64,000 nucleotides of DNA, taken from assembly GCA_947066815.1 (NCBI GenBank), contig CAMSZT010000011.1, positions 2,567-66,566 of the forward strand, given 5' to 3'. A program made the translations under genes and the position numbers. The stretch is from an uncultured Lachnotalea sp. (GTDB taxonomy: Bacteria > Bacillota > Clostridia > Lachnospirales > Lachnospiraceae). The notes beneath the pieces are model-generated. The model was not told the DNA's origin. It did not search any database and saw only the letters and a program-made list of their open reading frames with translations. This document shows, piece after piece, positions 617 through 55,461 of the stretch; the first letter of the stretch is position 1; each line of letters starts with the position of its first letter.

Positions 617-794
617 GGGCCGTCGGGGCATCCGTTCCTCGCAGACACGTCGATTTTGCGGATTTTGCTGCGCCGCCTATGGCAGGCAATTTCACCTCCA
701 TCAAACCGGGTCGGCTGAAATTGCCTGCGCTAGACGCAGCAAAATCCGCAAAATCTTCCTATCGTCTGCTCCGGAACGGATGCCCCGACGGCCC
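617..794. repeat. Family-1 rod-like palindromic repeat, copy 1 (core orientation A on + strand)
   Basis: Perfect 22-bp outer arms gggccgtcggggcatccgttcc (617-638) / ggaacggatgccccgacggccc (773-794). 21-bp helix GATTTTGCGGATTTTGCTGCG/CGCAGCAAAATCCGCAAAATC. Apical stem GCAGGCAATTTC/GAAATTGCCTGC with loop ACCTCCATCAAACCGGGTCGGCT. The core recurs at four other loci. Confidence 0.9.
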
Positions 795-2605: not shown

Positions 2606-2865
2606 AAATATTTCCACCTGTGCGGTTGGAACGCCTTGTTCTGGCTTCGTCAGGGAACAGCTGGTTGCAGCAGACGATAGGCAGATTTTGCAGATTTTGC
2701 AGATTTTGCGAGCCTAGCGTCATCGAACCGGCTGACCCGTTTTGATGGAAGCAGGTTCGGTGACAATAAGCGGCGCAGCAAAATCAAAAAATCAACGTGT
2801 CTGCGAAACCTGCTGCTCTCTGACGGAGACATGAGAAAGCTTCAACCGCACAGGTAGAAATATTT
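2606..2865. repeat. Family-1 rod-like palindromic repeat, copy 2 (core orientation A on - strand; long form)
   Basis: Outermost arms aaatatttccacctgtgcggttg (2606-2628) / caaccgcacaggtagaaatattt (2843-2865). The core is nearly identical to copy 5 in reverse complement. Contains gcagatttt x3. Confidence 0.9.
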
Positions 2866-2964: not shown

Positions 2965-5427
2965 TTACGCGTCCAGCTCCACCTTCACCCGGTCCAGATG
3001 CCAGATCTCATCTACGTACTGCCGGATCGTCCGGTCGGAAGAGAACTTGCCGGAGCAGGCCACGTTCATGATGGCCGCCTTCGCCCACCACTTCTCGTCC
3101 CGGTAAGCCGCATCCACCCGCTTCTGGGCTTCGGCGTAGGAACGGAAATCCTTCAGATTGAAGTAGGTGTCCGCCTTGTCGGTGCTCTGGGTGTTGAGCA
3201 GAGAATTGTACAGGTCACGGAACAGCTCCGTGTTGTGGGGCGCATAGAAGCCGTTGATGAGCTGCATCAGCACCCGGCGGATATCCTGGTCGTCGTTGAA
3301 GATATCCATGGGATTGTAGCCGCCGTGGGTCTCATAGTCAATGACCTCGTCGGAGGACATGCCGAAGATGAAGGCGTATTCCTTGCCCACCTCCTCCACG
3401 ATCTCCACGTTGGCGCCGTCCATGGTGCCGAGGGTCAGGGCCCCGTTCAGCATGAACTTCATGTTGCCCGTGCCGGAAGCCTCCTTGCTGGCGGTGGAGA
3501 TCTGTTCGCTGACGTCAGCCGCCGCAAAGATCCACTCCGCATTGGACACCCGGTAGTCCTCGATGAACACCACCTTGATCTTTCCGCCTATGGACTTGTC
3601 GTTGTTGACCACGTCGGCCACGGAATTGATCAGCTTGATGGTCAGCTTGGCGATCTTATAGCCCGCCGCCGCCTTGGCGCCGAAAATAAAGGTCCTGGGA
3701 ACCATGTCCATCTCCGGATTGTCCTTGAGCTGGTTGTACAGGTACATCACATGGAGGATGTTGAGGAGCTGTCTCTTGTACTCGTGGAGCCGCTTCACCT
3801 GCACGTCGAAGATGGACCTGGGATCCACGTCGATGCCGTTGTTCTCCTTGATATATTTCGCCAGACGGAGCTTGTTCTGGTACTTGATGTTCATAAACTC
3901 CTGCTGACACTTTTCGTCATCCGCATAGACGGCCAGCTTCTTGATGTGGGGCAGGTCGGTGATCCACTCGTCGCCGATCTTGTCCGTCACCCACTTAGCC
4001 AGAAGCTCGTTGCCATGGAGCAGGAACCTGCGCTGAGTGATGCCGTTGGTCTTGTTGTTGAATTTCTGAGGCTCCATCTCATAGAAATCTTTCAGGACCT
4101 TGTTCTTTAAGATCTCTGTATGCAGTCTCGCCACGCCGTTGACGGAAAAGCTTCCGGCAATGGCCAGATGGGCCATCTTCACCTGTCCGTCATAGATGAT
4201 GGCCATCCGCCTCACCTTCTCCTCGTCGCCGGGGAATGTCTTCCTGATCTTCTCCACGAAACGACGGTTGATCTCCTCCACGATCTGGTAAATACGGGGA
4301 AGCAGTCTGGAGAACAACTCCAGCGGCCATTTTTCCAGGGCCTCGGCCATGATGGTGTGGTTGGTGTAAGCGCAGGTCTTGGTGGTGATCTCCCACGCCT
4401 CGTCCCAGTCCAGACCTTCCACGTCCAAAAGGACCCTCATCAGCTCCGGAACCGCCACCGTGGGATGGGTGTCGTTCATCTGGAACACCACCTTCTCCGG
4501 CAGCATGTGGATGTCGTCATGGAGCATCTTGAACTTCTGCACCGCCCGCTGTACGCTGGCGGAGATGAAGAAATACTGCTGTTTCAGGCGGAGCTCCTTG
4601 CCCGCATAATGGTTGTCGTTGGGATAGAGGACCTCGACGATGTTCTTCGCCAGGTTCTCCTGCTCCACCGCCTTCCGGTAATCGCCCTTGTCAAAGGAAT
4701 CCAGGCTGAAGGTGTTGATGGGCTCCGCATCCCAGATCCTGAGCGTGTTCACCACGTTATTTCCATAGCCCACGATGGGAAGGTCGTAGGGCACGGCACG
4801 GACTGACTGATAGCCCTCCTGGATGAACTGGTTCCTCCCGTTCTTCCATTCCGTGCGGACATAGCCGCCGAATTTGACCTCGACCGCATACTCGTCCCGG
4901 CGCACCTCGAAGGGATTGCCGTCCTTCAGCCAGTCGTCCGGAACCTCCATCTGATAGCCGTCCCGGATCTCCTGCTTGAACATGCCGTACTTGTAACGGA
5001 TGCCGCAGCCGTAGGCCGCATAGCCCAGGGTGGCCAGCGAATCCAAGAAACAGGCCGCCAGACGGCCCAGGCCGCCGTTTCCGAGGGCGTAATCCCGCTC
5101 CTGGTCCTCGATCACATTGAGGTCAAAGCCCAGCTCGTCGAGAGCCCCTTTGATCTCGTCCCTGGCACAGATATTGATGATGTTGTTTCCAAGTGCACGG
5201 CCCATGAGAAACTCCATGGACATATAGTAGACCATCTTTGCATCCTGTTTGTCATACTGCTTGTGGGTGGCGATCCACTCGTCGACGATGACATCCTTCA
5301 CCGCATAGGCCACGGCCTGGAACACCTGCTTCGGCGTGGCCTCGGAAATGGTCTTCCGATAAAGATTCTTGACGTTGCTTTCCACTTCCCGTTTAAAGTG
5401 TTCCTTATCAAACTGATAACTGGACAT
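2965..5427 (-). CDS. glgP: glycogen/alpha-glucan phosphorylase (GT35)
   Basis: Contains the PLP-site signature EASGTGNMKFMLNGALTLGTMDGANVEI. Start placed at MSSYQF (aggagg RBS) rather than the ORF-track start 5457. Confidence 0.95.
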   Translation of the reverse strand: MSSYQFDKEHFKREVESNVKNLYRKTISEATPKQVFQAVAYAVKDVIVDEWIATHKQYDKQDAKMVYYMSMEFLMGRALGNNIINICARDEIKGALDELGFDLNVIEDQERDYALGNGGLGRLAACFLDSLATLGYAAYGCGIRYKYGMFKQEIRDGYQMEVPDDWLKDGNPFEVRRDEYAVEVKFGGYVRTEWKNGRNQFIQEGYQSVRAVPYDLPIVGYGNNVVNTLRIWDAEPINTFSLDSFDKGDYRKAVEQENLAKNIVEVLYPNDNHYAGKELRLKQQYFFISASVQRAVQKFKMLHDDIHMLPEKVVFQMNDTHPTVAVPELMRVLLDVEGLDWDEAWEITTKTCAYTNHTIMAEALEKWPLELFSRLLPRIYQIVEEINRRFVEKIRKTFPGDEEKVRRMAIIYDGQVKMAHLAIAGSFSVNGVARLHTEILKNKVLKDFYEMEPQKFNNKTNGITQRRFLLHGNELLAKWVTDKIGDEWITDLPHIKKLAVYADDEKCQQEFMNIKYQNKLRLAKYIKENNGIDVDPRSIFDVQVKRLHEYKRQLLNILHVMYLYNQLKDNPEMDMVPRTFIFGAKAAAGYKIAKLTIKLINSVADVVNNDKSIGGKIKVVFIEDYRVSNAEWIFAAADVSEQISTASKEASGTGNMKFMLNGALTLGTMDGANVEIVEEVGKEYAFIFGMSSDEVIDYETHGGYNPMDIFNDDQDIRRVLMQLINGFYAPHNTELFRDLYNSLLNTQSTDKADTYFNLKDFRSYAEAQKRVDAAYRDEKWWAKAAIMNVACSGKFSSDRTIRQYVDEIWHLDRVKVELDA

Positions 5428-5499: not shown

Positions 5500-8400
5500 C
5501 TATACGGTCGCCTTCTCCACACCAAGCATAACACGTTCGCCGTTAATATTCCAGTCTTTTTCGTATCCGGCGACCTTTCCGATATAAATTTCCTCGGCCA
5601 GGACCTCGCCCTTGATCTCTTCCGTGTGGTTTTTCAGGATCTCGGCGATCCTGTCGTTCTCATCCTGGTACAGATGGATGTGGTCCGTGACCTCGAAGCC
5701 GGCCTCCTTGCGCATGGTCTGCACCTTGCTGATGATCTCCCGGACAAAGCCCTCCTCCAGAAGTTCCGGCGTCAGGTTGGTGTCCAGCACCACCGTGACC
5801 TCCCCGGAAACCTCCGTCACATAGCCCTCCTTCTGGACCATGTCGATCAGAAGGTCCTCTTCCGACAGAGTCACCTCCGTCCCGGCCATGGACATGGTGA
5901 GGAAGCCTTTCGCCTTCAGCTCGTCCATGGCGGCATTGCCGTCCAGCTCCGCAAGCTCCTTCTTGATCTGTCCCAGAAGCTTCCCGTACTTGGGCCCCAC
6001 GGTCCGCATCTGCGGCTTGAAGGTGTAGGTGGTAAACTCCCGCACATCGTCGGTGAACACGGCCTTCTTCACATTCAGCTCGTCTTCTACGATCTCGGCA
6101 TAGAACTCCGGCAGGGCGAAGGGCGCCTTCACGAACATCTTTCCGATGGGCTGGCGGTTTTTGATGTTTGCCGTGTTGCGGCAGGCCCGGCCCATGACCA
6201 CCACCTTCAGCACATGCTCCATGTGATCTTCCAGCTCTCTGTCAATGTGGCTCTCGTCCGCTGTGGGGAAGTCACACAGGTGCACGCTCTCCGGAGCGTC
6301 CTTGTCGATGCTGCACACCAGGTTCCGGTAAATGTCCTCCGTCATGAAGGGGATCATCGGCGCCGCCGCCTTGCTGACCGTCACGAGGGCCGTGTACAGG
6401 GTCATGTAGGCATTGACCTTGTCCTGGGGCATTCCCTTCGCCCAGAACCGCTCCCTGCTCCGTCTCACGTACCAGTTGGAAAGATCGTCCACGAACTCCT
6501 GCAGGGCCTTGGCCGCCTCCGGGATCCGGTAGTTCTCCAGGTGGGAATCCACGGCCTTCACCATGGTGTTCATCTTGGACAGAATCCATCTGTCCATGAC
6601 GGAAAGGGCACTGTAGTCCAAACTATATTTTGTCGCGTCGAAATTGTCAATGTTCGCATAGAGCACGAAGAAGGCATAGGTGTTCCAGAGGGTCCCCATG
6701 AACTTCCTCTGCCCCTCCATGACGGCCTTCCCGTGGAACCGGTTGGGCAGCCAGGGTGCGCTGTTGATATAGAAATACCAGCGGATGGCGTCGGCCCCGT
6801 AGGTGGCGAGGGCGTCAAAGGGATCCACCGCATTCCCCTTGGACTTGCTCATCTTCTGGCCGTTCTCGTCCTGCACGTGCCCCAGCACGATCACGTTCTC
6901 GTAGGGCGCTTTGTTGAAGATCAGGGTCGAGATCGCCAGCAGGGAATAGAACCATCCCCTGGTCTGGTCCACCGCCTCGGAGATAAACTGGGCCGGGAAC
7001 TGGGCCTTGAAGAGTTCCTCGTTCTCAAAGGGATAATGATGCTGGGCAAAGGGCATGGCCCCGGAGTCAAACCAGCAGTCGATCACCTCCGGCACCCGCC
7101 GCATCTGCTTCCCGCACTTGGGGCAGGTGATGGTCACGGCGTCGATGAAGGGCCGGTGCAGCTCGATGTCGTCGGGACAGTTGTCGGACATTTCCTTGAG
7201 CTCCGCAATGCTCCCGATGGAATGCTGGTGCCCGCACTCACATTCCCAGATGTTTAAGGGCGTCCCCCAGTAACGGTTCCTGGAAAGGCCCCAGTCCTGG
7301 ATGTTCTCCAACCAGTCGCCGAAGCGGCCCTTGCCGATGCTCTCCGGGATCCAGTTGATGGTGTTGTTGTTGCGGATCAGGTCCTCCTTGACCTCCGTCA
7401 TCTTGATGAACCAGGACTCTCTGGCGTAATAGATGAGCGGCGTGTCGCAGCGCCAGCAGTGGGGATAGCTGTGCTCGAACTTGGGGGCGTCGTAGAGCAG
7501 TCCCCGCTCGTCCAGCCAGACGAGCACCTTCGGGTCGGCCTCCTTCACGAACAGCCCCGCAAAAGGTGTCTCCTCCGTCATGTTCCCCTTGCCGTCCACC
7601 ATCTGCACGAAGGGCATGTTGCCGTATTTGCGGCAGACCCTGGCATCGTCCTCACCGAAGGCCGGAGCAATGTGAACCACGCCGGTGCCGTCGGTCAGGG
7701 TGACGTAACCATCACAGACCACGAAGAACGCTTTCTTGTTCTGCTTATCGGCCACCTGCTTCGCACAGTCGAAGAGCGGCTCATACTCCTTATATTCCAG
7801 GTCTTTTCCTTTATAAGTCTCAAGCACCTCGTAGGCAGGCTTCCCCTCCTCCGCCAGACGTCCGAGCACCGTGTCCAGAAGGGCGGTCGCCATATAGTAG
7901 GTCTTCCCGTCGGCGGCCTTCACCTTCGCATACTCCTCGTCCGGGTTCACGCAGAGGGCGATGTTGGAGGGCAGGGTCCAGGGCGTCGTGGTCCAGGCCA
8001 GGATGTAAGCGTCCTCGCCCTTCACCTTGAAGCGGACCACCGCCGAGCGTTCCTTGATATCTTTATAGCCCTGGGCCACCTCGTGGCTGGAGAGGGGCGT
8101 GCCGCAGCGGGGGCAGTAGGGTACGATCTTGAAGCCCTTGTAGAGAAGGCCCCGGTCCCAGATCTTCTTGAGCGCCCACCATTCCGACTCGATAAAGTCG
8201 TCGTGGTAGGTCACGTAGGGATCGTCCATGTCGGCCCAGAAGCCCACCGTGCCGGAGAAATCCTCCCACATGCCCTTGTACTTCCACACGCTCTCCTTGC
8301 AGTGGGCGATAAAGGGCTCCAGGCCGTACTCCTCGATCTGCTCCTTGCCGTCCAGGCCCAGCATCCGCTCCACTTCCAGCTCCACCGGGAGCCCGTGGGT

Positions 8401-17859: not shown

Positions 17860-17916
17860 CCGTCGGGGCGGCCTATCATCTGCCTATCGTCTGCTGCAAG
17901 CCGTTGCCCCCGACGG
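17860..17916. repeat. solo-end remnant of the Family-1 repeat, forming a hairpin over the folC stop
   Basis: Contains atctgcctatcgtctgc, identical to the right-end box of copies 2 and 5, flanked by ccgtcggggcggc / gccgttgcccccgacgg. Confidence 0.7.
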
Positions 17917-30413: not shown

Positions 30414-33059
30414 CTATTTCCCGAGCTGCGCCAGCCGCTCCTTCACCTGGGCCATCATCTGCTCATACTTCTCAAGCTTCTCCCGCTCCGCCTGGATCTT
30501 GGCCTGGGGTGCGCGGCTCACGAACTTCTCATTGTCCAGCATTCCCCGAGAACGGGCCAGTTCCTTGTTTAACCGCTCCTCTTCTTTCTGGAGGCGTTCG
30601 ATCTCCTTGGCCGTATCCACCAGTTCTGCGAGCGGCATGTAGACCACGGCCTTCGCCGTCACGGCGGAGACGGCGTCCTTTGGGATCCCCGCCTTGTCCG
30701 CCTGCACCGTCACCTCGCCGGCAGAGCCCAAGGTGGCAAAGAACACCTTGCCGTTCTCAAAGATTTCCCGGACCGCCCCGTCCCCGGAAACCACAAACAC
30801 GCTGGCCTTCCGGCTGGGCGGCACGTTCATGGAGGTGCGCACGCCCCGGATGGCCCGGACCGCTTCCTTGATGGTCTCCACCGCCGTCTCGTCCTCCGCA
30901 AACTCCCACTCGGCCTTAAATTCCGGCCAGGAGGAGATCATGATGGATTCCTCCTCGTCCTGCAGGTTGCAGAAGATTTCCTCCGTGATGAAAGGCATGT
31001 ACGGGTGCAGAAGCTTCAGAGACTGGATGAGCACCGTTTTCAAAGTCCAGAGGGCCGCCGCCTTCGTCTCGTCGTCGTCATTGTACAGGCGGGGCTTCAC
31101 CATCTCGATGTACCAGTCGCAGAATTCCTCCCAGATAAAGTCGTAGACCTTCTGGAGGGCGATCCCCATCTCGTACTTGTCCAGGTTCTCCGTCACGTCC
31201 TTCGTCAGGGTGTTGACCTTGGAGAGAATCCACTTGTCAGCCCCGGTCAGGCTGTCCACGCCCACCTCGTGGACGGAGGCACGGGACATGTTCATCAGGA
31301 TGAAGCGGGATGCGTTCCAGACCTTGTTGGCAAAATTCCGGCTGGCCTCCACCCGCTCCCAGTAGAACCGCATGTCGTTGCCGGGTGCGTTTCCGGTGAT
31401 CAGAGTCATGCGCAGGGCGTCGGCACCGTACTTGTCCACCACCTCCAGGGGATCGATGCCGTTTCCGAGGGACTTGCTCATCTTCCTGCCCAGGGAATCC
31501 CGCACCAGGCCGTGGATCAGCACCGTGTGGAAAGGCTCCTTCCCGGTCTGCTCAAGGCCCGAGAACACCATGCGGATGACCCAGAAGAAAATGATGTCGT
31601 AGCCGGTCACCAGCACGTCGGTGGGATAGAAATAATCCAGCTCCGGCGTCTTCTCCGGCCAGCCAAGGGTCGAGAAGGGCCAGAGGGCCGAGGAGAACCA
31701 GGTATCCAGCGTGTCCTCGTCCTGGACCATGTGGGCGCAGCCGCATTTCGGGCAGACCTTGGGCGCTTCCTTTGCAACCACCATCTCGCCGCACTTCTCG
31801 CAGTAATAAGCCGGAATCCGGTGTCCCCACCAGATCTGCCTGGAAATGCACCAGTCCCGGATGTTCTCCAGCCAGTGGAGATAGGTCTTTCCGAAACTCT
31901 CCGGCACGAACTTCAGTCTCCCGGACTTTAACGCCTCGATGGCCGGCTTCGCCATCTCGTCCATCTTCACGAACCACTGCTGCTTCACCATGGGCTCGAT
32001 GGTGGTCTTGCACCGGTCATGAGTTCCCACGTTGTGGGAGTGGTCGGCCACCTTCACCAGAAGGCCCAGCCCCGAGAGCTCCTCCACGATGGCCTTCCTG
32101 GCCGCATAGCGCTCCATGCCCTGGTACTTGCCGCCGTTCTCATTGATAGTGGCGTCGTCATTCAGGATGTTGATCTCCGGAAGGTTATGCCGCTTCCCCA
32201 CCTCGAAGTCGTTCGGGTCATGGGCGGGCGTGATCTTCACACAGCCGGTCCCGAACTCCCTGTCCACGTATTCGTCGGCCACCACGGGGATCTCCCGGTT
32301 CACGATGGGCAGGATCAGCATCTTCCCCACCAGGTCCTTGTAGCGCTCGTCATCCGGGTGGACGGCCACCGCCGTGTCGCCCAGCATGGTTTCCGGCCTG
32401 GTGGTGGCGATCTCCACGAACCGCCCCGGCTCCCCCTTCACCGGATAATTGATATGCCAGAAATGGCCCGCCTGCTCCTCGTGGACCACCTCCGCATCGG
32501 AGATCGACGTCTGGCACTCCGGGCACCAGTTGATGATGCGGGAGCCCTTGTAAATATAGCCCTTCTCATAAAGGCGGATGAACACCTCCAAAACCGCATC
32601 GGAACAGCCCTTGTCCATGGTGAACCGCTCCCGCTCCCAGTCCGCCGAAGAGCCCAGCTTCTTGAGCTGCCGCACGATCCTTCCGCCGTACTCCTCCTTC
32701 CAGGCCCAGACATGCTCCAGAAATTCCTCTCTGGTCAGGTCGTCCTTGTTGATGCCTTCGCTGCGGAGCTTGTCGATGACCTTCACCTCCGTGGAAATGG
32801 CCGCATGGTCCGTTCCCGGCTGCCACAGGGCCGAATAGCCCTGCATCCGTTTGTAGCGGATCAGAATGTCCTGCATGGTATTGTCCAGGGCGTGGCCCAT
32901 GTGAAGCTGGCCCGTGATGTTGGGCGGCGGCATCACGATGGTGAAGGGCTTCTTGTCCCGGTCCACCTCGGCGTGAAAATAATTCTTCTCCATCCACCGC
33001 TCATACAGCCTGTCCTCGATGGCCTGTGGATTGTAGGTCTTTTCCAGTTCTCTGCTCAT
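30414..33059 (-). CDS. valS: valine--tRNA ligase
   Basis: [14 protein letters not shown] and KMSKSLGN motifs with a C-terminal coiled coil. Start at [15 protein letters not shown] (ATG 33059, RBS gaaaggaaagg). The ORF-track extension runs through upstream tandem repeats. Confidence 0.95.
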
Positions 33060-33084
33060 AAATTCCTTTCCTTTCTCCGATATG

Positions 33085-33290
33085 TGCCGCTGGCTAATTT
33101 CCTCTTGCGCCCCCACGCTGTTCGAGCAGGGAAGAGGGGGTTTTCCCTGCTCGCCGTGCGGGGCGCACGCCGCATAGCGGCTAATTTCCTCTTGCGCCCC
33201 ACGCTGTTCGAGCAGGGAAGAGGGGTTTTTCCCTGCTCGCCGTGCGGGGCGCACGCCGCATAGCGGCTAATTTCCTCTTGCGCCCCTGCA
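33085..33290 (-). repeat. 86-87 bp tandem repeat, about 2.3 copies, inside the valS 5' UTR
   Basis: Unit starts (ggctaatttcctcttgcgcc) at 33092, 33179 and 33265. Each unit can fold as GCGCCCCGCACG..GAGCAGGGAA-loop-TTCCCTGCTC..CGTGGGGCGC on the minus strand. Confidence 0.9.
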
Positions 33291-34047: not shown

Positions 34048-34256
34048 ACATTTCCTCCCAAATGCGAATACGATAACTTCTCTATTACAGAGATTACCAC
34101 ATCAGGCACACAAGTCAAGAAAATTTTTATAAAGCCCTCTGTTCGTGCCGGAAAGCCGCCGTTCGTGCCGTCCCCCCGCCCCTCCGCACAAAAGCTGATA
34201 TAATGTTGCCATTGAAAAAATTCACAAAAAATCACCTTATTACGGGAGGAAGACTC

Positions 34257-36917
34257 ATGAACGCCCTGAAAAACAGGAAACGATCAATCGCATCCATAAA
34301 CCCATCCATGCCATCCAGGAACCCGTCAGCAAAGAGACACCTCGTATTCATCCTGGCCCTGCTGCTGGCACTGTGCCTGCTTCCGCTCCCTTCCCGGGCG
34401 GCAGACGGAAACTGGACCGACGGGCTGGCCACGGCTCCTGACGGATATGCCGACGACGGCAGCGGCACCATCACCGTCACCACCGCCGAGGGCCTGGCCT
34501 GGCTGGCCGTCCAGACCGACGGCCTGAACGGCGCGGCGCCGGACGACTTCTCGGGAAAAATCGTCGTCCTCGGGGCCGACATCGACTTGAGCGGGAAAAA
34601 CTGGACCCCCATCGGAACGGAAAACGCTCCCTTCCGGGGAAGCTTTGACGGCCAGGGCCACACCATATCCGGAATGACCCTCCAAGCGGACGGCACGGAA
34701 AAGACCGCCGGCCTTTTCGGCCGTGTCTTTTTCAACGGCTCTGCCGACGCCCCCGCCTATATCCGTGACCTCGCCCTGACCGACATCCGGATGACCATCG
34801 GGGCCATTCCCAGCTTTTCCTACGCCGGCGGCCTGGCCGGTGAGGCGATGGCCGGCTGCGGACTGATCTCCGGCTGCACCGTGAGCGGCCAGATCCAGTG
34901 CACCGCCCCCGTCAGCTCCCTCTACACAGGCGGCCTGATCGGCATGGTCAATCCCACAAGCAACGTCGAACGTGCCATCCGGCTGGAAAACTGCCATGCG
35001 GACGTGGAAATTTCCGGTTCCCTCTCCAAGGCGGGCGGCTTCGTGGGCGGAGTCGGGGACAACGCCGATATCGCCGGCTGCGGCGCCTCCGGGAACATCA
35101 CCTGCCCCGCTTCCGCTGCCGACGTCCAGTCCGGCGGCTTTGCGGGCGAGATCGCCCCCGTCAACGGCTCCGTCTCCATCCGAAACTGCTACGCCACCGG
35201 AGATTCGGACGTTGCGTCCGCCGGGCCCTCCTACGCAGGCGGGTTCGCAGGCTACGTGGGGGGCACCGGCATCCTTCTGAAAAACTGCATGTCCTCCGGC
35301 AGCGTCTCCCTCTCCTCCGCCTCCCCGAATCCCCTGCTGTTCGCCGGAGGCTTTGGCGGCGTCCTGATGGACGGAACCACCTCTGCGGACTGCTATGCCA
35401 CCGGAAGCATCTCCGTGAGCGGCGGAGCTGCCGCCATCGGCGGCGGTTTTTCCGGCACCTCCCAGAATAGCGCCGCCGTGAACTGCTATGCGGCGGGAAA
35501 CGTCACCGCATCCGGGGACGGACAGAACCGGGCCTACGGCTTCACCGGAAATGCCTCCGCCGGCAGTGACTTTGAAAACTGCTACGCCCTGGGGAAGGAG
35601 ATGTCGGCCTCCGGCGGAACCCCCACCGTCAGCCCCTTCCTGTCCACAAACGCTTCCGTCACCGTGACAGACTGCGGCTGGCATGCCGACATGGACTTCG
35701 GCTCCCTGACTCCCATATCCAACGGCGGAACAAACAACGGTACTTTTGACGCACTCCGTCCGGAAGAGATCGTCGAAAGGCTTTCCGCCCTCCCGGACAG
35801 CAGCTGGACGGCGGGAGAGGACGGACGGCCCATCTTAAAAGACGTACCCGCATCCGTTCAGACGACCGGCAAGCTGGATTACGTCTATCCGGTCGTCACC
35901 TTCGACACCATGGGGGGAAGCCCCGTGACCTCCCGGTCCGTCGCCTACGGCAAGACGGTGGCGCCTCCCGAACCCCCGGTCCGGGACGGATACCGGTTCG
36001 ACGGCTGGTACGAAAGCAATGACGGCGGCACGACCCTGTCCGACGCCCCCTTCGACTTTGGCACCGCCGTCACCCGTACCATGACCCTCTACGCCAAATG
36101 GATCCCCCTCCACGCCATCCGTCTCCAGGCAGACCCGGCCGAGGGCGGCACGGTCGCCGGGGCAGGAACTTATCCGGCAGGAGAGACCGTCACCGTCACG
36201 GCCGTCACGGCCGAAGGCTGGCAATTCCTCCGGTGGACCGAAGACGGACAGGAAGTCAGCACGGAGGCAGACTATTCCTTCCCGGCAGAGGCAGACCGCA
36301 CCCTCACCGCAGAGTTTAAGGCCCTTCCGGAAATCACGGTCACCCTGCTTGCGTCTCCCTCCCGGGGCGGCACGGTCTCTGGCGGCGGCACCTTCCGTGA
36401 GGGCCAGCCCGTCGCCGTCACGGCCGTCCCCGAAAAGGGCTACCGCTTTGTCCGGTGGAGCGAGAACGGAAGAACCGTGAGCGAAAGCCAGACCTTCCGC
36501 TTTACGGCATCCACGAACCGCGCCCTCACCGCAGAATTCGAATCCTCCGAAACGCAGACAGCGCCCGGCAATGACGAAAACCAGACAGATCCCGGCAATG
36601 GCGGTGGCCAGGCGGGCTCTGGCAATGGCGGCGGCCAGACAAGGCCCGGTAACGGCGGCAGTCAGGCGGGCTCCGGTAATAGTGGAGGTCAGACAGGCTC
36701 CGGCAGCAGCGGAATCCAGGCGGGCTCCGGTAATAGCGGAGGTCAGACAGGCTCCGGCAGCAGCGGAATCCAGGCGGCCCCCGGCAATAGCGGAGGCCAG
36801 ACAGGCTCCGGCACCGGCGACACCCGCCCCTTAAGCCTCCTGTGGTTCCTGTTCCTCACTTCCTTCGGGACCCTCTCCGCCCTGTCCTTCCGGGCAGAAC
36901 GGGCCAAAAAGCGCTGA
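34257..36917 (+). CDS. large secreted surface protein with GLUG-type repeats, Listeria-Bacteroides/InlB-B-type repeat domains and a C-terminal TM anchor
   Basis: Signal peptide HLVFILALLLALCLLPLPSRAADG. Repeated GGLAG/GGLIG/GGFVG/GGFAG motifs. VTFDTMGGSPV...DGYRFDGWY...LYAKW domain and two further Ig-like repeats (GWQFLRWTEDG, GYRFVRWSENG). A G/S/Q-rich repeat tract, then a hydrophobic tail plus RAERAKKR. Start at MNALKNRK (34257). Confidence 0.85.
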   Translation: MNALKNRKRSIASINPSMPSRNPSAKRHLVFILALLLALCLLPLPSRAADGNWTDGLATAPDGYADDGSGTITVTTAEGLAWLAVQTDGLNGAAPDDFSGKIVVLGADIDLSGKNWTPIGTENAPFRGSFDGQGHTISGMTLQADGTEKTAGLFGRVFFNGSADAPAYIRDLALTDIRMTIGAIPSFSYAGGLAGEAMAGCGLISGCTVSGQIQCTAPVSSLYTGGLIGMVNPTSNVERAIRLENCHADVEISGSLSKAGGFVGGVGDNADIAGCGASGNITCPASAADVQSGGFAGEIAPVNGSVSIRNCYATGDSDVASAGPSYAGGFAGYVGGTGILLKNCMSSGSVSLSSASPNPLLFAGGFGGVLMDGTTSADCYATGSISVSGGAAAIGGGFSGTSQNSAAVNCYAAGNVTASGDGQNRAYGFTGNASAGSDFENCYALGKEMSASGGTPTVSPFLSTNASVTVTDCGWHADMDFGSLTPISNGGTNNGTFDALRPEEIVERLSALPDSSWTAGEDGRPILKDVPASVQTTGKLDYVYPVVTFDTMGGSPVTSRSVAYGKTVAPPEPPVRDGYRFDGWYESNDGGTTLSDAPFDFGTAVTRTMTLYAKWIPLHAIRLQADPAEGGTVAGAGTYPAGETVTVTAVTAEGWQFLRWTEDGQEVSTEADYSFPAEADRTLTAEFKALPEITVTLLASPSRGGTVSGGGTFREGQPVAVTAVPEKGYRFVRWSENGRTVSESQTFRFTASTNRALTAEFESSETQTAPGNDENQTDPGNGGGQAGSGNGGGQTRPGNGGSQAGSGNSGGQTGSGSSGIQAGSGNSGGQTGSGSSGIQAAPGNSGGQTGSGTGDTRPLSLLWFLFLTSFGTLSALSFRAERAKKR

Positions 36918-43066: not shown

Positions 43067-43170
43067 AGTCCTTCTCTCCCTCGCAGATTCACTCACTGTT
43101 CGCCGTTTGGTTTTCCTCTGTCCTATTATAAAATACCGGGGGGCAAAAATCAAACGGAAATGTGACGAAC

Positions 43171-43421
43171 AAAAACCGACCGCCCTTTGTTTCGAGGTAT
43201 CGCACGCCAAAAGGTTTCTCCGTTGCCGATTTCAGACACGTCGGTTTTGTCGATTTCACTGCGCCGCCTATTGCAGGCAATTTCACCTCCATCAAACCGG
43301 GTCGGTTAAAATTGCCTGCGCTATGCTCGTGAAATCACCAAACCCTTCCTATCGTCTGCGCATCGGAAACGGAGAAACCTTCCGGCGCCTCGCAGCTTTC
43401 CACAAAGGGCGTCCGGTTTTT
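43171..43421. repeat. Family-1 rod-like palindromic repeat, copy 3 (orientation A on + strand)
   Basis: Outer arms aaaaaccgaccgccctttgt (43171-43190) / acaaagggcgtccggttttt (43402-43421). Inner arms aaggtttctccgttgccgat (43211-43230) / atcggaaacggagaaacctt (43362-43381). Conserved core and loop CACCTCCATCAAACCGGGTCGG. Confidence 0.9.
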
Positions 43422-43569
43422 GTTCTGACAGCGGGGGCCGCCACGGCGGGTTCCTATCCGGGAGGCGGAGGAGGCGCCTGTGACTGCCTGTAGATTTTCA
43501 ACAAAGCCGTCCGCCTTCGTTCTGGTGAGCGGAACCACTCCATAACGATGCTCGTGAAATCGCCGTTCT

Positions 43570-48896: not shown

Positions 48897-49147
48897 GGAA
48901 GAGGACCGGCCGCTTTTTCAGCCGACTTTTCCCGGGGCCGTCCGCCGGCTTCTCCTAAGCAGACAATAGGAGGTTTGGACGAATTTCCCGAGCATAGCGC
49001 AGGCAATTTTCGCCGACCCGGTTTGATGGAGGCAAAATTGCCTGCGATCGGCGGCGCAGGGAAATCGTTCAAACCGAACGTGTCTGCGTGGAGAAGCCGG
49101 CGGACGGCCCCGAAAACAGCCTCCTAAAAAGCGGCCGGTCCTCTTCC
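48897..49147. repeat. Family-1 rod-like palindromic repeat, copy 4 (orientation A on - strand)
   Basis: Perfect 22-bp outer arms ggaagaggaccggccgcttttt (48897-48918) / aaaaagcggccggtcctcttcc (49126-49147). Perfect 22-bp middle arms ggggccgtccgccggcttctcc (48934-48955) / ggagaagccggcggacggcccc (49090-49111). Conserved core. Confidence 0.9.
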
Positions 49148-49148
49148 G

Positions 49149-49898
49149 TCACTCCCTCCCACACACCAACCTGTTGATCTGCGCCCCCATGTACCCGCCG
49201 CCGAACCCATTGTCGATGTTGACCACGGCCATCCCCTCAGCGCAGGAATTGAGCATGCACAGAAGGGGCGCGATCCCGTTAAGCCCGGCCCCATAACCCA
49301 CAGAAGTCGGAACGGCGATGACCGGCTTGTCCACCAGCCCCGTGATGACGCCGCCCAGGGCGCCCTCCATCCCCGCCACCGCCACGATACAGTTGGCCTT
49401 CCGGATCTCCTCAATTTTGGAGAAGAGCCGGTGGATCCCGGCCACCCCCACGTCAAATACCCGGAGCACCCGGCTCCCGTGGAACTCCGCCGTCTGGGCT
49501 GCCTCCTCCGCCACGGGAATATCCGCCGTCCCTCCGGTACAGACCGCCACCAGCCCCTTCCGCTCCGCCGGGTGCGGCTCATATTTAAGCACACCGGAAA
49601 CCTCGTCGTAGCCCACCTCCGGCACCGCAAGACGCACCGCCTCATACTGCTCCGCCGAAGCCCTGGTGCCCATGACGTTCACGCCCCGGTCCCGGAAGCT
49701 CTCGTAAATGCGGACCAGGTGGTCCAGCTTCTTCCCCTGGCAGAAGATCACCTCACCGAATCCCCGGCGCGCACTCCGGTGAAAATCAATCTTGGCACAG
49801 CCGATGTCCTCATACTCCTGTGCCCCCATCATGATCTCCGCCTCCTCCACAGAGAGTTCCCCCGCCTTCACCTGTTCCAAAAGTTCCCTGACCTCCAT
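49149..49898 (-). CDS. larB: nickel-pincer cofactor biosynthesis protein LarB (NaAD carboxylase/hydrolase, PurE-like)
   Basis: N-terminal helical extension plus PurE-like core VAVCTGGTADIPVAEEA...VAGMEGALGGVI...VIAVPTSVGYG. Confidence 0.85.
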   Translation of the reverse strand: MEVRELLEQVKAGELSVEEAEIMMGAQEYEDIGCAKIDFHRSARRGFGEVIFCQGKKLDHLVRIYESFRDRGVNVMGTRASAEQYEAVRLAVPEVGYDEVSGVLKYEPHPAERKGLVAVCTGGTADIPVAEEAAQTAEFHGSRVLRVFDVGVAGIHRLFSKIEEIRKANCIVAVAGMEGALGGVITGLVDKPVIAVPTSVGYGAGLNGIAPLLCMLNSCAEGMAVVNIDNGFGGGYMGAQINRLVCGRE

Positions 49899-50765: not shown

Positions 50766-52301
50766 TCAAAACGCCTCCGCCTGCCGTCTGATCTCTTCAT
50801 AAATGTCCTGAAAAGGCTTTCCCGAACTGTCCGCATACCGGGCCACATCTTCATATTCCGGATAGCAGAAGGCAAGCTCCCCCCGCCGCACCTCCTTGAC
50901 CCTGGCCGGCCCGTAGGAGGTTTCCACCGTGCGGATCTTCCTGGGAAGGACCGTCCTGAGGATCGGATATCGCCGGATGCCGATGGTGGTGGTATGCCGG
51001 AAAATGATATCCTCCAACGCTTCCCGCTTTCCTTCGTCGCAGACCACCTTCATCAGCCAGGCCGGCCGGTTCTTCTTCATAAACGCCGGGAGATAGCACA
51101 CGTCCCTGGCCCCCGCCGCAAAGAGCCGCTCCATCACATAGCCCAGCGCCTCCCCGGTGGCGTCGTCAATATTGGTCTCCAGCATCCAGAGCCCGTCCTC
51201 GGCTCCCGGGCAGACACCCGCCTCCCGGCCATCCCCGGCTCCCGGGCCGTCTCCCGGCCTCCGGCCACTCCCGCTTTCCGGGCGCTCCTCGATCAGACAG
51301 GCCCGCAGGATGTTGGCCTTCGGGAAATCCTTTTTCCCGGCCCCTATTCCCGTTTTAAGGATACGGAACGATTCCGGCAGACGCTCCCTGGTCCGGACGC
51401 CCGCCGCAATGGCCGCCCCGGTGGGCGTCACCATCTCCCCCCTGGTGTCCGTCATTCTCAGGAAAAGCCCGCGGGCCTCGGCGACGGCCATGACCGCCGG
51501 AACCGGGACCGGGAGAATGCCGTGCTGGCAGTGGACATGGCCGCTCCCCTCGCAGATCTCCGAGACCACCGCCTCCGTAATGTCCAGATCATCCAGACAG
51601 ATAGCCGCGGCCGCAATGTCCACGATGGAGTCCACCGCCCCCACCTCGTGGAAATGCACCTCCGAAATATCCTTCCCGTGGACCTTGGCCTCCGCCTCCG
51701 CCACGATCCCGAAAATCCGGAGCGCCGTCTCCTTCGCCCGCTCCGTCATGCCCGAACGGCGGATGATCTCAGTGATATCCCCCAGATTCCGGTGGACATG
51801 CCCGTGCTCATGGCCATGGCCATCTCCGTATTCATGCATATGGCTGTGCCCGTGTTCATGGCTGTATCCCTGCCCGTTTGTATGCTCATGGCCGTCCTCA
51901 TGCTCATGTGCATGCAGGTGCCCATGCGTATGCTCATGGCCGTCCTCATGCTCATGCGCATGCAGGTGCCCATGTGTATGCTCATGACCGTCCTCATGCT
52001 CATGCGCATGCAGATGCCCACGGCTTTCCCCATGCCCATGCTGGTGCTCATGGCCGTTCCCCTGCCTATGCTCATATTCCACATAATCATGGCTGCCGCC
52101 GTCCTCGTCCCCGGCAAGCTCCACGTCAAAGCTGCAGGCTTCCACGCCGCATTTCACCCTCCGGCCGATCTTCACCTCATAGCCGGAGAGTCCCAGACTG
52201 GCAAGCCCCTCCAGAAGCTTTTCCCGGTCGGCCCCCAGATCCAGGAGCGCCGCCACCGTCATGTCCCCGCTGATTCCCGAATAGCATTCCAAATAAAGCA
52301 T
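50766..52301 (-). CDS. larC: nickel insertion protein LarC (pyridinium-3,5-bisthiocarboxylate mononucleotide nickel chelatase) with an expanded His-rich insert
   Basis: N-terminus MLYLECYSGISGDMTVAALLDLGAD (DUF111/LarC family). A His-rich tract of about 100 aa. C-terminal domain present. Confidence 0.88.
   Translation of the reverse strand: MLYLECYSGISGDMTVAALLDLGADREKLLEGLASLGLSGYEVKIGRRVKCGVEACSFDVELAGDEDGGSHDYVEYEHRQGNGHEHQHGHGESRGHLHAHEHEDGHEHTHGHLHAHEHEDGHEHTHGHLHAHEHEDGHEHTNGQGYSHEHGHSHMHEYGDGHGHEHGHVHRNLGDITEIIRRSGMTERAKETALRIFGIVAEAEAKVHGKDISEVHFHEVGAVDSIVDIAAAAICLDDLDITEAVVSEICEGSGHVHCQHGILPVPVPAVMAVAEARGLFLRMTDTRGEMVTPTGAAIAAGVRTRERLPESFRILKTGIGAGKKDFPKANILRACLIEERPESGSGRRPGDGPGAGDGREAGVCPGAEDGLWMLETNIDDATGEALGYVMERLFAAGARDVCYLPAFMKKNRPAWLMKVVCDEGKREALEDIIFRHTTTIGIRRYPILRTVLPRKIRTVETSYGPARVKEVRRGELAFCYPEYEDVARYADSSGKPFQDIYEEIRRQAEAF
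51881..52024 (-). repeat. 48-bp tandem repeat x3 inside larC (encodes HLHAHEHEDGHEHTHG x3)
   Basis: Units begin at 51881, 51929 and 51977 (tatgctcatggccgtcctcatgctcatg.gcatgcaggtgcccatg.g). Confidence 0.85.
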
Positions 52302-53865: not shown

Positions 53866-54119
53866 AAAATTATTCCACCTGTGCGGTGAAAGGTTTTCCA
53901 TGTCTCCGTCAGGGAACAGCCCATTTCGCAGACACGTTGATTTTTTGATTTTGCTGCGCCGCCTATTGTCATCAAACCTGCTTCCATCAAAACGGGTCAG
54001 CCGGTTCGATGACGCTATGCTCGCAAAATCTGCAAAATCTGCCTATCGTCTGCTTCAAATGGGCTGTTCCCTGACGAAGACGGAATCCAATATTCCGACC
54101 GCACAGGTAGAAATTATTT
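53866..54119. repeat. Family-1 rod-like palindromic repeat, copy 5 (orientation A on + strand; long form)
   Basis: Outermost arms aaaattattccacctgtgcggt (53866-53887) / accgcacaggtagaaattattt (54098-54119). Inner arms gggaacagcccattt / aaatgggctgttccc. Apical stem GTCATCAAACC/GGTTCGATGAC with loop TGCTTCCATCAAAACGGGTCAGCC. Confidence 0.9.
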
Positions 54120-55461
54120 ATACAAAACGGATATCCGCATCCAGCCGCTTCTCCTCCCCGGCGAGGTCCGGCTCCGTGAGGACCAGCCGCATGGCCCAGG
54201 CCGGGACGGACACGTCCGTATAGTCCTCTTTCATGAACAAAAAGGCCACGTCATAATCCGGCCGCTTCGCCGGGTAGACCCCCTTCCCGTCGGTAAAATA
54301 CAAAAGCCCCTTGAGCCGCTTAAGCTCCCCCCGCTCCCGCAGGGCTTCCACATGGGCGAAGACCGGCCGGAAATCCGTGCCCCCTCCGCCCTTCACCTCG
54401 AACCGCTCCATAAAATCCGAAAGCCCGTCCGTGTCGGTGATCACTGCGTCTTCCTGCACCTGATCGTCACACTGGATCACGTGGATCCGCACCTTCTTAA
54501 AAAAGCTTTCTGTCTGGAATAAAATACCGCAGGTCTCCGAGAGAAAGGCTCTCACCAGCTCTCCGGAGCAGGACATGGAGGTGTCGACGGCAATGACGAA
54601 CTCCTGTATCTTTTTCGTCTCCTTAAACTCCTGCGGCTCGATCAGGGGCAGGTTCCCGTAAAGGCGCAGTCCGTAGCTGTAAAAGCCCTGGTCGAAAGAA
54701 TCCTCGTCGATGCGCATCTCCTCCCGCCACACCGAAAACTTCCGGAGAAATGCCCGGTAATCCTGCCGTCTTTTATTCCGGAGCTTCACCTGCTCCAAAA
54801 GTCCGCCTGGATCCTCGCCCCTCTCCCGCCCGAAGGTCTCCGCCTCCGTCTCCATCTTATCGGCAATGTCCTGCCAGCGTCTGTCAAGCTCCGAGACCGC
54901 CTCCGGCGGCCTCTCCCCGTCCTCCTTCGGCCAGAATCCATGGTCGTCCACCAAAAACAGCTCCGAGAGCCGTTCCTTCTGCTCCCCGGAAAGCTCCCAC
55001 TCATGGAGGACGTGGTAGACTCCCTCCGCCGTGAGCACCGAAAGCCGCCCCGAAAGCTCCTTATAAACCAGGGCCCGTTCCGGCGGCACGGCCTTTCGGA
55101 CACTCCGTTTCCCCAGATAGTCGATCATGGACTCCGCCGCAATATCACAGGCCAGGTGCCAGAGGTCCTCCCTCCTGGCCCCCCGCCTCGTCAGATGCCG
55201 GAACAGGCAGTGGAGCACCATGTGGAGATACAACCGGTTAAGGCCCGTCCTGTCCCTCTCAAACAACTCCGAAAGCCCGTAGGGCTCAAAATAGATCACA
55301 TAGCCGTCGGTGCCCGCCGTCCGCGCCTCCGTGTCCATCTGATACCGCAGACTGCTAAGGGCCAGGTCCAGAAACCGCATATTCAGATACAATTCATTGC
55401 GGGCGGTCCCCAGGATCTCTTTCCCGATCCCGTCCCACGTCTCAGACAATCTCCGCGACAT
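54118..55461 (-). CDS. vWA-like protein with N-terminal DUF2201-type putative metallopeptidase domain
   Basis: LYLHMVLHCLFRHL (HExxH-like position) in the N-domain. vWA MIDAS VIAVDTSMSCSG. Start set at MSRRLSETW (55461, preceded by ggagggagggg); the ORF-track start 55482 is possible. Confidence 0.8.
   Translation of the reverse strand: MSRRLSETWDGIGKEILGTARNELYLNMRFLDLALSSLRYQMDTEARTAGTDGYVIYFEPYGLSELFERDRTGLNRLYLHMVLHCLFRHLTRRGARREDLWHLACDIAAESMIDYLGKRSVRKAVPPERALVYKELSGRLSVLTAEGVYHVLHEWELSGEQKERLSELFLVDDHGFWPKEDGERPPEAVSELDRRWQDIADKMETEAETFGRERGEDPGGLLEQVKLRNKRRQDYRAFLRKFSVWREEMRIDEDSFDQGFYSYGLRLYGNLPLIEPQEFKETKKIQEFVIAVDTSMSCSGELVRAFLSETCGILFQTESFFKKVRIHVIQCDDQVQEDAVITDTDGLSDFMERFEVKGGGGTDFRPVFAHVEALRERGELKRLKGLLYFTDGKGVYPAKRPDYDVAFLFMKEDYTDVSVPAWAMRLVLTEPDLAGEEKRLDADIRFV

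Follow-up and report, generated by a model that had tools for sequence, protein, structure and literature searches.

A dispersed, probably mobile repeat family of gut Lachnospiraceae in which hairpin pairing is kept while stem sequence varies

The 64-kb stretch of contig CAMSZT010000011.1 from an uncultured Lachnotalea sp. analysed here (‘the window’) carries at positions 2606–2865 a repeat that is probably one copy of a dispersed, non-coding, palindromic, structured and mobile family, similar in kind to REPINs, bcr1 and MITEs (transposable elements of miniature size with inverted repeats) and confined to a clade of gut Lachnospiraceae. The first-pass annotation of this region had pointed to two of five window copies as having exchanged their whole apical helix for an unrelated, again complementary one around a retained loop, and had taken this exchange to define a second subfamily. 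We find that the helix swap is not special within the family, being the extreme case of a general rule, and that the apical loop is not the family's key invariant. The family is previously undescribed, whereas its kind, hairpin-maintained miniature repeats, is already known from REPINs and bcr1; present evidence does not make it a system of a new kind. If our reading holds, a well-resolved example from gut Clostridia joins the small set of repeats, REPINs and bcr1 among them, that are maintained as a hairpin and not as a sequence.

Five full copies (c1–c5; Table 1) occur in the window, each read here such that its core begins with CAGACACG, while loci from other genomes are labelled with L and a number. 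A pattern that skips the apical stem and loop (CAGACACGT-N8-30-CTGCGCCGC-N44-70-CGCTA) matches exactly these five, with none expected in shuffled sequence. Scanned against one genome per species, the same pattern returned 67 loci, ~55 of them genuine and the remainder chance matches in unrelated phyla. All genuine loci come from Lachnospiraceae or Eubacteriales metagenome-assembled genomes (mouse-gut MGBC and iMGMC bins, Ca. Limivivens, Coprococcus and Marvinbryantia). R1, a covariance model that describes the core by 132 positions, recovered 71 forward copies in the ~0.49 Mb of sequence scanned, and the 68 or so that are distinct are spread over at least eight Lachnospiraceae genomes. From a metagenome collection, a pattern restricted to the 5′ half yielded six loci, of which three are real, all of them complete copies resembling that of L028. 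Family members form rods of 178–340 bp, five of them in the 64-kb window, and the open reading frames (ORFs) that run across copies are spurious only. As in MITEs, the copies are shorter than ~400 bp, non-coding, numerous and dispersed, and one type of them (type-2, below) has terminal inverted repeats (TIRs).

Common to every copy is a core of ~125 nt whose consensus folds as an imperfect hairpin on either strand, as single-stranded DNA (ssDNA) or as RNA; the segment shared between copies is this entire core, which excludes the possibility that the loop is shared by chance. The core comprises P0 (CAGA/TCTG); an asymmetric internal loop, IL1, with CACGT opposite TTCCTATCG; P1–P2, made of two GATTTnnn units; IL2, where an invariant GCG/CGC clamp is accompanied by bulges of 10 nt on the 5′ side (CCGCCTATTG) and 8 nt on the 3′ side (TATGCTCG); P3, the apical stem, which is hypervariable; P4, a short stem closed by either C-G or U-A; and an 8-nt apical loop, ATCAAAnC (AUCAAAnC as RNA), plus a GTC bulge. 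Outer arms, complementary and lineage-specific, stretch the rod to ~180–340 bp. Positions 2600–2870 fold as a rod on either strand (z = −10.6 and −10.8), and c5 as ssDNA reaches −63.8 kcal/mol (z = −11.5). The parts that are best conserved across the family are the two internal loops, CAGACACGT/CCTATCGTCTG and CTGCGCCGCCTAT/CGCTATGCTCG. Neither the diagnostic loop nor the IL2 strings were found in the searchable literature, and a literature search found no description of MITEs in Lachnospiraceae.

Pairing in this core is kept while its sequence turns over. In an alignment that was itself fitted to the model, 94.5% of cells are paired, 28 of the 35 core pairs have changed on both sides, and doubly changed cells number 346 against 87 ± 8 in shuffles, so that neutral decay alone is insufficient, as the first-pass annotation had argued; an independent alignment (MAFFT with RNAalifold) agrees, at 24 of 35 pairs. 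The covariation score is 0.43, compared with 0.16 in shuffles and at most 0.08 when partners are slid by 1–3 columns. Helix replacement with retained complementarity thus goes far beyond chance when the family is structurally aligned across genomes. Compensated variants are found even among copies within the window (c1 GATTTTGC/GCAAAATC, c3 GATTTCAC/GTGAAATC, c4 GATTTCCC/GGGAAATT). That variation is compensated inside each copy of one genome argues that the constraint is intramolecular pairing and not co-evolution with the binding specificity of a protein.

The same is seen in place, among copies that occupy the same site in four to five species and whose flanking genes are 75–97% identical. 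In the c1 orthologues of L043, L066, L022 and L061 the two outer arms match each other without a mismatch, and between loci their sequences have diverged by compensated changes (CATCCG/CGGATG vs CTTTTG/CAAAAG; GTCGGGG/CCCCGAC vs GTCAGGG/CCCTGAC). Across 20 orthologous pairs, positions changed on both sides are still Watson–Crick in 135 cases and broken in 43, where about one third would be paired by chance; orthologous copies therefore stay paired. Between dispersed paralogues of one genome identity reaches ~91% at most, and yet isolated mismatches affect only ~4% of paired positions, which indicates that complementarity is maintained after insertion. Per-site change between orthologues is lowest in P0 (0.037), followed by IL1 (0.074), P3 (0.083), IL2 (0.113), the apical domain (0.154) and P1–P2 (0.19). 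Hence the internal loops and P0, and not the apical loop, are the most constrained; the apical domain changes faster than P3, IL1 or P0.

Against this background the swap in c2 and c5 is real. The apical stem of c1, c3 and c4 (GCAGGCAATTT/AAATTGCCTGC) is replaced by GTCACCGAACC/GGTTCGATGAC in c2 and by GTCATCAAACC/GGTTCGATGAC in c5 (53968–53978 and 54003–54013), that is, by GTCAyCrAACC/GGTTCGATGAC as originally described, with the loop block TCCATCAAAnCGGGTC kept; a 16-nt block, TCCATCAAA(A/C)CGGGTC, is present in all five copies with one base varying. The complementarity claimed for the new stem extends to 10 of its 11 pairs, each copy having one C·A or A·C mismatch (G·T on the opposite strand). 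It is also correct that c2 and c5 lie in opposite orientation and are one 9-bp unit apart, CAAAATCTG occurring three times in c2 and twice in c5; the orthologue of c2 in L022 has two units as well, and the third is therefore slippage specific to the window. What does not survive is the division into two subfamilies, for the 68 distinct copies form a continuum in which 35 different apical-stem pairs and 46 different apical domains occur. Other P3 pairs include ACGGGGATTT/AAATCCCCGT (Limivivens), GCAGCAATTT/AAATTGCTGC and CCGCCAGCC/GGCTGGCG-like forms, and three Coprococcus-type copies have had the whole apical domain replaced, with IL1 and IL2 kept. Loop conservation did hold up as more copies were aligned: the motif persists in 65 of the 68, the loop not having been used as bait, and its alternative forms include ATAGAAGC and AACAAAAC.

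The ends of c2 and c5 identify them as members of a single lineage with its own TIRs and 8-bp target-site duplications (TSDs), at odds with the contrast to a transposon that the earlier interpretation implied. This lineage, type-2, also includes copies in L004, L018, L020, L040, L044, L050, L053 and L022 (L022b); CCACCTGTGCGGTTGAAGG stands as an inverted repeat at both ends in 9–10 of these copies, and 7–9-bp AT-rich direct repeats flank 6–7 of the 10. The extra outermost arm attributed to c2 and c5 is genuine insofar as their outer arms are complementary and end in the TIR CCACCTGTGCGG; its outermost aaat.tt, in contrast, is the flanking 8-bp direct repeat, a hallmark of transposition. Nor are such arms peculiar to these two copies, since each of the other three (c1, c3 and c4) has a different set of complementary outer arms, in rods of 178–270 bp. 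The 8-mer beside c2, AAATATTT, is its own reverse complement, such that direct and inverted readings are indistinguishable there. Comparison between genomes gives presence and absence: the L020 copy is missing in the 97%-identical L023, where the site reads GAGAAAAAAACGAGAGG and fits the duplicated A-run, and c2 is present in L022 and missing at the syntenic site of L061, where the spacer is otherwise conserved. Deletion remnants are common: one lies at 17860–17916 in the window and another at the c3 site in L014, L033 has a lone 3′ half, and L008 and L061 have mini elements reduced to the TIRs. Type-1 copies (c1, c3 and c4 in the window) have ends that are conserved without being strictly inverted (ACGGAAGA...TCTTCCTG; (TG)AC^GGAAGA...TCTTCC^TG), and some carry a further outer module, GTTTCCGCATTTTT. 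A 4-bp TGAC duplication considered for type-1 was rejected, as the AC and TG dinucleotides persist irrespective of the flanking sequence, and left and right flanks frequently disagree.

It is quite possible, if on balance somewhat doubtful, that c2 and c5 are composites, in which a miniature transposon unrelated to the family, with CCACCTGTGCGG as its TIRs and an 8-bp TSD, gained the core by nested insertion or recombination, the subfamilies then being different vehicles of one module. Such an origin would suit the type-2 outer arms, which have no detectable similarity to type-1 arms, the core-less ~65–70-bp mini elements with the same TIRs (L008 5404–5480, L061 7100–7165), the existence of other nested insertions into the core, and the type-2 P1/P2 sequence TTGATTTTTTGATTTTG, which is closer to copies from other genera than to the type-1 copies of the window. 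The mini elements, however, are equally explicable as internal-deletion derivatives of type-2, and may be either that or the ancestral vehicle, and the type-2 inner unit is never seen without TIRs. Moreover, the intermediate P3 variants of other lineages, within the 35 pairs, make gradual compensatory turnover sufficient, which counts against a composite origin. The proposal concerns origin only and is compatible with the constraint on the core described above.

Several observations weigh against a mobile element of the kind we favour. The type-1 copies show no convincing TSD, and none of them has yielded a clean empty site; their syntenic sites in L014, L053 and L059 hold remnants or extra unrelated sequence, such that type-1 boundaries and TSDs are not definable there. 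As several of the TSD 8-mers are AT-rich and near-palindromic, only c5, L020, L018 and the empty site in L023 discriminate direct from inverted repeats. The divergence among paralogues leaves no sign of recent activity, and the many old copies kept at orthologous sites are as compatible with usefulness to the host as with selfishness. The window and ~0.5 Mb of flanks revealed neither an autonomous partner nor a transposase; an approximate IS200-type TnpA (RAYT-type) probe, searched by tblastn against the window and all loci (~0.5 Mb), gave nothing below E = 0.06. Clustering the ORFs of 57 loci brought out no recurrent partner gene in the 8-kb flanks; the families recovered were all housekeeping ones (aminotransferases, ABC ATPases, phosphoglucomutase, two-component systems and P-type ATPase). 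No autonomous insertion sequence (IS) with the same ends was seen in the window, the loci or the viral, plasmid or phage collections, and no copy of the repeat was matched on viral contigs, plasmids (PLSDB) or phages (INPHARED); a single viral match to the TIR lies inside a coding region and is a chance one. Finally, the gene strands used to count copy orientation against adjacent genes (mixed, at 22 vs 13 across loci) and isolated G·T and A·C mismatches relative to flanking transcription (36 vs 37) are crude, ORF-based and known to be wrong in places within the window.

Taking the mobile-repeat reading as a working model, type-2 copies would have inserted by staggered cuts made by a transposase supplied in trans. 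Stems are free to vary in sequence as long as pairing holds, with the unpaired motifs fixed, and the likely cause, by analogy with REP/REPIN–RAYT and bcr1, would be a trans-acting protein, either the mobilizing enzyme or a host factor, that reads the unpaired motifs on a hairpin or cruciform. The motifs likeliest to be read in this way are CAGACACGT/CCTATCGTCTG, CTGCGCCGCCTAT/CGCTATGCTCG and the AUCAAAnC loop, for which the structural model given here is usable. The motifs were also considered as IHF sites, DnaA boxes, kink-turns and CsrA-type sites, none of which fits well. Copies lie between co-directional genes in either orientation and so become long hairpins in mRNAs, which may affect transcript processing, as REP, ERIC and Correia repeats would suggest. 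Who mobilizes or binds the repeat, and whether it is selfish or useful, thereby becomes directly testable in mouse-gut Lachnospiraceae. More tentatively, and we think this rather unlikely, the core might be a domesticated or mutualistic ligand of a putative, probably single-copy, Lachnospiraceae protein, kept at orthologous sites by selection on its three unpaired motifs and spread by different transposon vehicles, the type-2 TIR element included. If true, it would constitute a Firmicute counterpart of REPIN–RAYT, or a new class of hairpin/cruciform DNA/RNA signal.

A functional structured RNA, either encoded as a small RNA gene in many copies or acting in cis within mRNAs (for instance as a processing or stability hairpin, or as a platform for protein binding), with its fold under selection and its transposon-like ends incidental, is an unlikely alternative, even though it would account for the strong covariation together with conserved unpaired motifs, for long retention at orthologous intergenic sites with compensation in situ, and for IL1 and IL2 changing more slowly than the stems; copies within probable operons would also be transcribed. 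Selection for pairing in RNA should tolerate G·U over A·C, and no such preference is seen, in element orientation (isolated G·T vs A·C mismatches, 47 vs 68), relative to flanking transcription as given above, or over orthologous pairs (G·U vs A·C, 68 vs 77). Copies stand in both orientations relative to genes (3 vs 2 in the window), and neither promoter-like sites nor a terminator were found inside c2 or c5. Rfam (release 15) gave no match at the gathering threshold for the whole window, and at E ≤ 10 the searches with c1, c2 and c4 returned noise or generic long-hairpin matches to miRNA precursors far below threshold. Taken together, the lack of an Rfam match, of a promoter, of a fixed orientation and of a bias for G·U over A·C makes a dedicated RNA gene unlikely, as do the TIRs and TSDs of type-2 and the abundance of copies, accompanied by remnants and nested insertions. 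The symmetry of mismatch types instead indicates a hairpin or cruciform at the DNA level, or that both strands are equivalent.

That symmetry is also what a strand-symmetric DNA process predicts, and neutral arm-to-arm repair of an extruded hairpin or cruciform (intra-palindrome gene conversion), which would keep a decaying, functionless palindromic transposon complementary, would in addition produce compensation in situ at vertically inherited copies and frequent palindrome-typical deletions; it is nevertheless unlikely, because such repair gives unpaired regions no protection and would tend to lose conserved asymmetric bulges, whereas IL1, P0 and IL2 are the slowest parts (0.04–0.11 vs 0.19 per site) and vary hardly at all across 68 copies drawn from several genera.

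Among known systems the repeat invites comparison first with REPINs, hairpins whose motifs are conserved and whose variable region commonly shows compensatory changes (PMC3116915). Here too two inverted conserved units form a hairpin with a compensating spacer, tens of intergenic copies occur per genome and persist vertically for long, singlet or half remnants are left behind, tandem clusters occur occasionally (L063), and most copies have no adjacent partner gene. The present repeat differs in being 2–4 times longer (180–340 bp vs ~70–110 bp), in having no GTAG-type REP motif, in the absence of a detectable RAYT/IS200-like gene from the ~0.5 Mb searched, and in its Bacillota host; described REPIN–RAYT systems are mostly from Proteobacteria. 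HUH/Y1 enzymes make no target duplications, whereas type-2 copies have TIRs and 8-bp duplications; type-1 copies, for which none was found, are compatible with insertion of that sort. As a separate observation, tandem or closely spaced inverted pairs of copies are present in L063 (7356–7487/7604–7735, tandem and 97.7% identical), L011 (5124–5256/5743–5875) and L006 (3–134/427–559), and recall REPIN/BIME clusters.

Bcr1 of the Bacillus cereus group (Klevan et al., 2007, via PMC3184786) is a transcribed, MITE-like element of ~155 bp with 5-bp direct repeats and a strain-variable distribution, in which compensatory base-pair changes keep a cruciform-like structure. The likeness lies in a Firmicute repeat with short flanking direct repeats, patchy distribution and compensatory changes. 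It differs from the present family in the length of the direct repeats (5 bp, against 8 bp here), and no sequence relationship is apparent, the two having been compared by description; here, moreover, one conserved core is combined with several types of outer arm and terminus, and many copies sit at orthologous sites across species.

Classical MITEs such as Correia/CREE, ERIC and RUP are likewise small, non-coding, intergenic and co-transcribed, with TIRs, TSDs and long hairpins, and some are RNase III substrates or modulators of mRNA stability. Their TIRs, however, are conserved and derive from known IS, whereas in the present family the internal unpaired motifs are best conserved, termini vary by lineage and there is no known parent IS. 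Integron attC sites offer a mechanistic analogy for stems that are free while unpaired bases are fixed, through structure-based recognition and conserved extrahelical bases. But attC sites are strand-specific, 57–141 bp long and arranged in cassette arrays beside an integrase gene, none of which holds here; the copies are solitary, between housekeeping genes.

Table 1. Repeat copies and their parts in the window.
Feature	Position	Strand	Remarks
c1, type-1	617–794, core 639–771	+	Between MgtE gene and sigma-70 gene
Left TSD of c2, AAATATTT	2606–2613		Same 8-mer on both flanks
c2, type-2, TIR to TIR, 244 bp	2614–2857	−	TIRs CCACCTGTGCGG (2614–2625, + strand) and CTACCTGTGCGG (reverse complement of 2846–2857)
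c2 conserved core (P0, IL1, P1/P2, IL2, P3, P4, apical loop)	2668–2806	−	cmsearch 118.3 bits, E = 7e-31, model R1; alignment
CAGATTTTG ×3 in c2 (= CAAAATCTG ×3 on − strand); third unit an unpaired slippage product	2682–2708	+	×2 in c5 and in L022 orthologue
c2 swapped apical stem P3, enclosing P4 and loop block 2734–2749	2719–2764; arms 2754–2764 and 2719–2729 (+ strand numbering)	−	Sequence, loop match, P3-column covariation
Right TSD of c2, AAATATTT	2858–2865		Same 8-mer on both flanks
Core-less remnant: c1-like outer stem CCGTCGGGGC...GCCCCCGACGG around CCTATCATCTG-CCTATCGTCTGC	17860–17916	+	Sixth, partial type-1 copy
c3, type-1	43162–43431, core 43230–43361	+	Between rubrerythrin and NAD synthase genes
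c4, type-1	48897–49150, core 48957–49089	−	Begins at stop codon of LarB/AIRC-like gene
Left TSD of c5, AAATTATT	53867–53874		8/8 direct repeat with 54111–54118; inverted reading only 4 nt
c5, type-2, TIR to TIR, 236 bp	53875–54110, core 53926–54055	+	Core 137 bits
Right TSD of c5, AAATTATT	54111–54118		Overlaps TAA stop (54118–54120) of DUF2201 gene

Beyond c1 and c2, further window copies recur in other genomes: c3 in L030 and L060, with only a remnant at the L014 site, and c4 in L014 and L063. The window's own core-less remnant has a counterpart in L033, where the 3′ half of a type-2 copy stands alone and begins at the remnant's motif. Every gene beside a window copy is a − strand housekeeping gene (sigma-70 factor, MgtE, glycogen phosphorylase, NAD synthase, rubrerythrin, MoxR-type AAA, LarB/AIRC-like and DUF2201 products), and the uniformly negative GC skew across the window places it in a single replichore. 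Immediately outside the left end of c3 stands a good sigma-70-type promoter of the NAD synthase gene (TTGATT-17-TATAAT, 43118–43146, − strand), which is conserved in the core-less L014 site and is thus a host promoter and not part of the element.

Some minor features touch individual copies. The conserved terminus of c4, GGGAGTGACGGAAGA, holds the TGA stop of the LarB/AIRC-like gene (49141–49160). A terminator-like hairpin (AAAGGCACGTC...GACGTGCCTTTC, 2869–2910, − strand) follows the glycogen phosphorylase gene and is conserved in L061 and L022; the insertion point of c2 is just downstream of it. The leader of the MgtE gene (start 2218, − strand) contains a 33-nt inverted repeat, 85% complementary (2356–2388/2495–2527). 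Whereas mgtE genes of Firmicutes are often preceded by an M-box riboswitch, none was detected by Rfam in this leader. In two other genomes the core itself is interrupted by an insert of ~80 nt with two small hairpins in its 3′ bulge (GCTATG^CTCAT; L046 7300–7390, − strand, and L060 ~4495–4618), at the same bulge point in unrelated loci, which may be another small nested repeat or an optional module.

The window also holds repeats of other kinds. An 86-bp unit is tandemly duplicated with 99% identity at 33111–33282, at or just upstream of the 5′ end of a − strand ORF (30414–33254) that is class-I aminoacyl-tRNA-synthetase-like by similarity to 6781–6861; Rfam matched no leader at this duplication. 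Positions 51823–52080, within overlapping long ORFs, form a CATG-rich coding repeat with 12-, 18- and 30-nt periodicity, the opposite strand of which reads as histidine codons, and probably encode a His-rich repetitive protein segment. Lastly, nine 27-nt repeats (GGCAATGGCGGCGGCCAGACAGGCTCC-like) at 36567–36809 lie in the ORF 34203–36917 and would encode a Gly/Asn/Gln/Ser-rich nonapeptide repeat.

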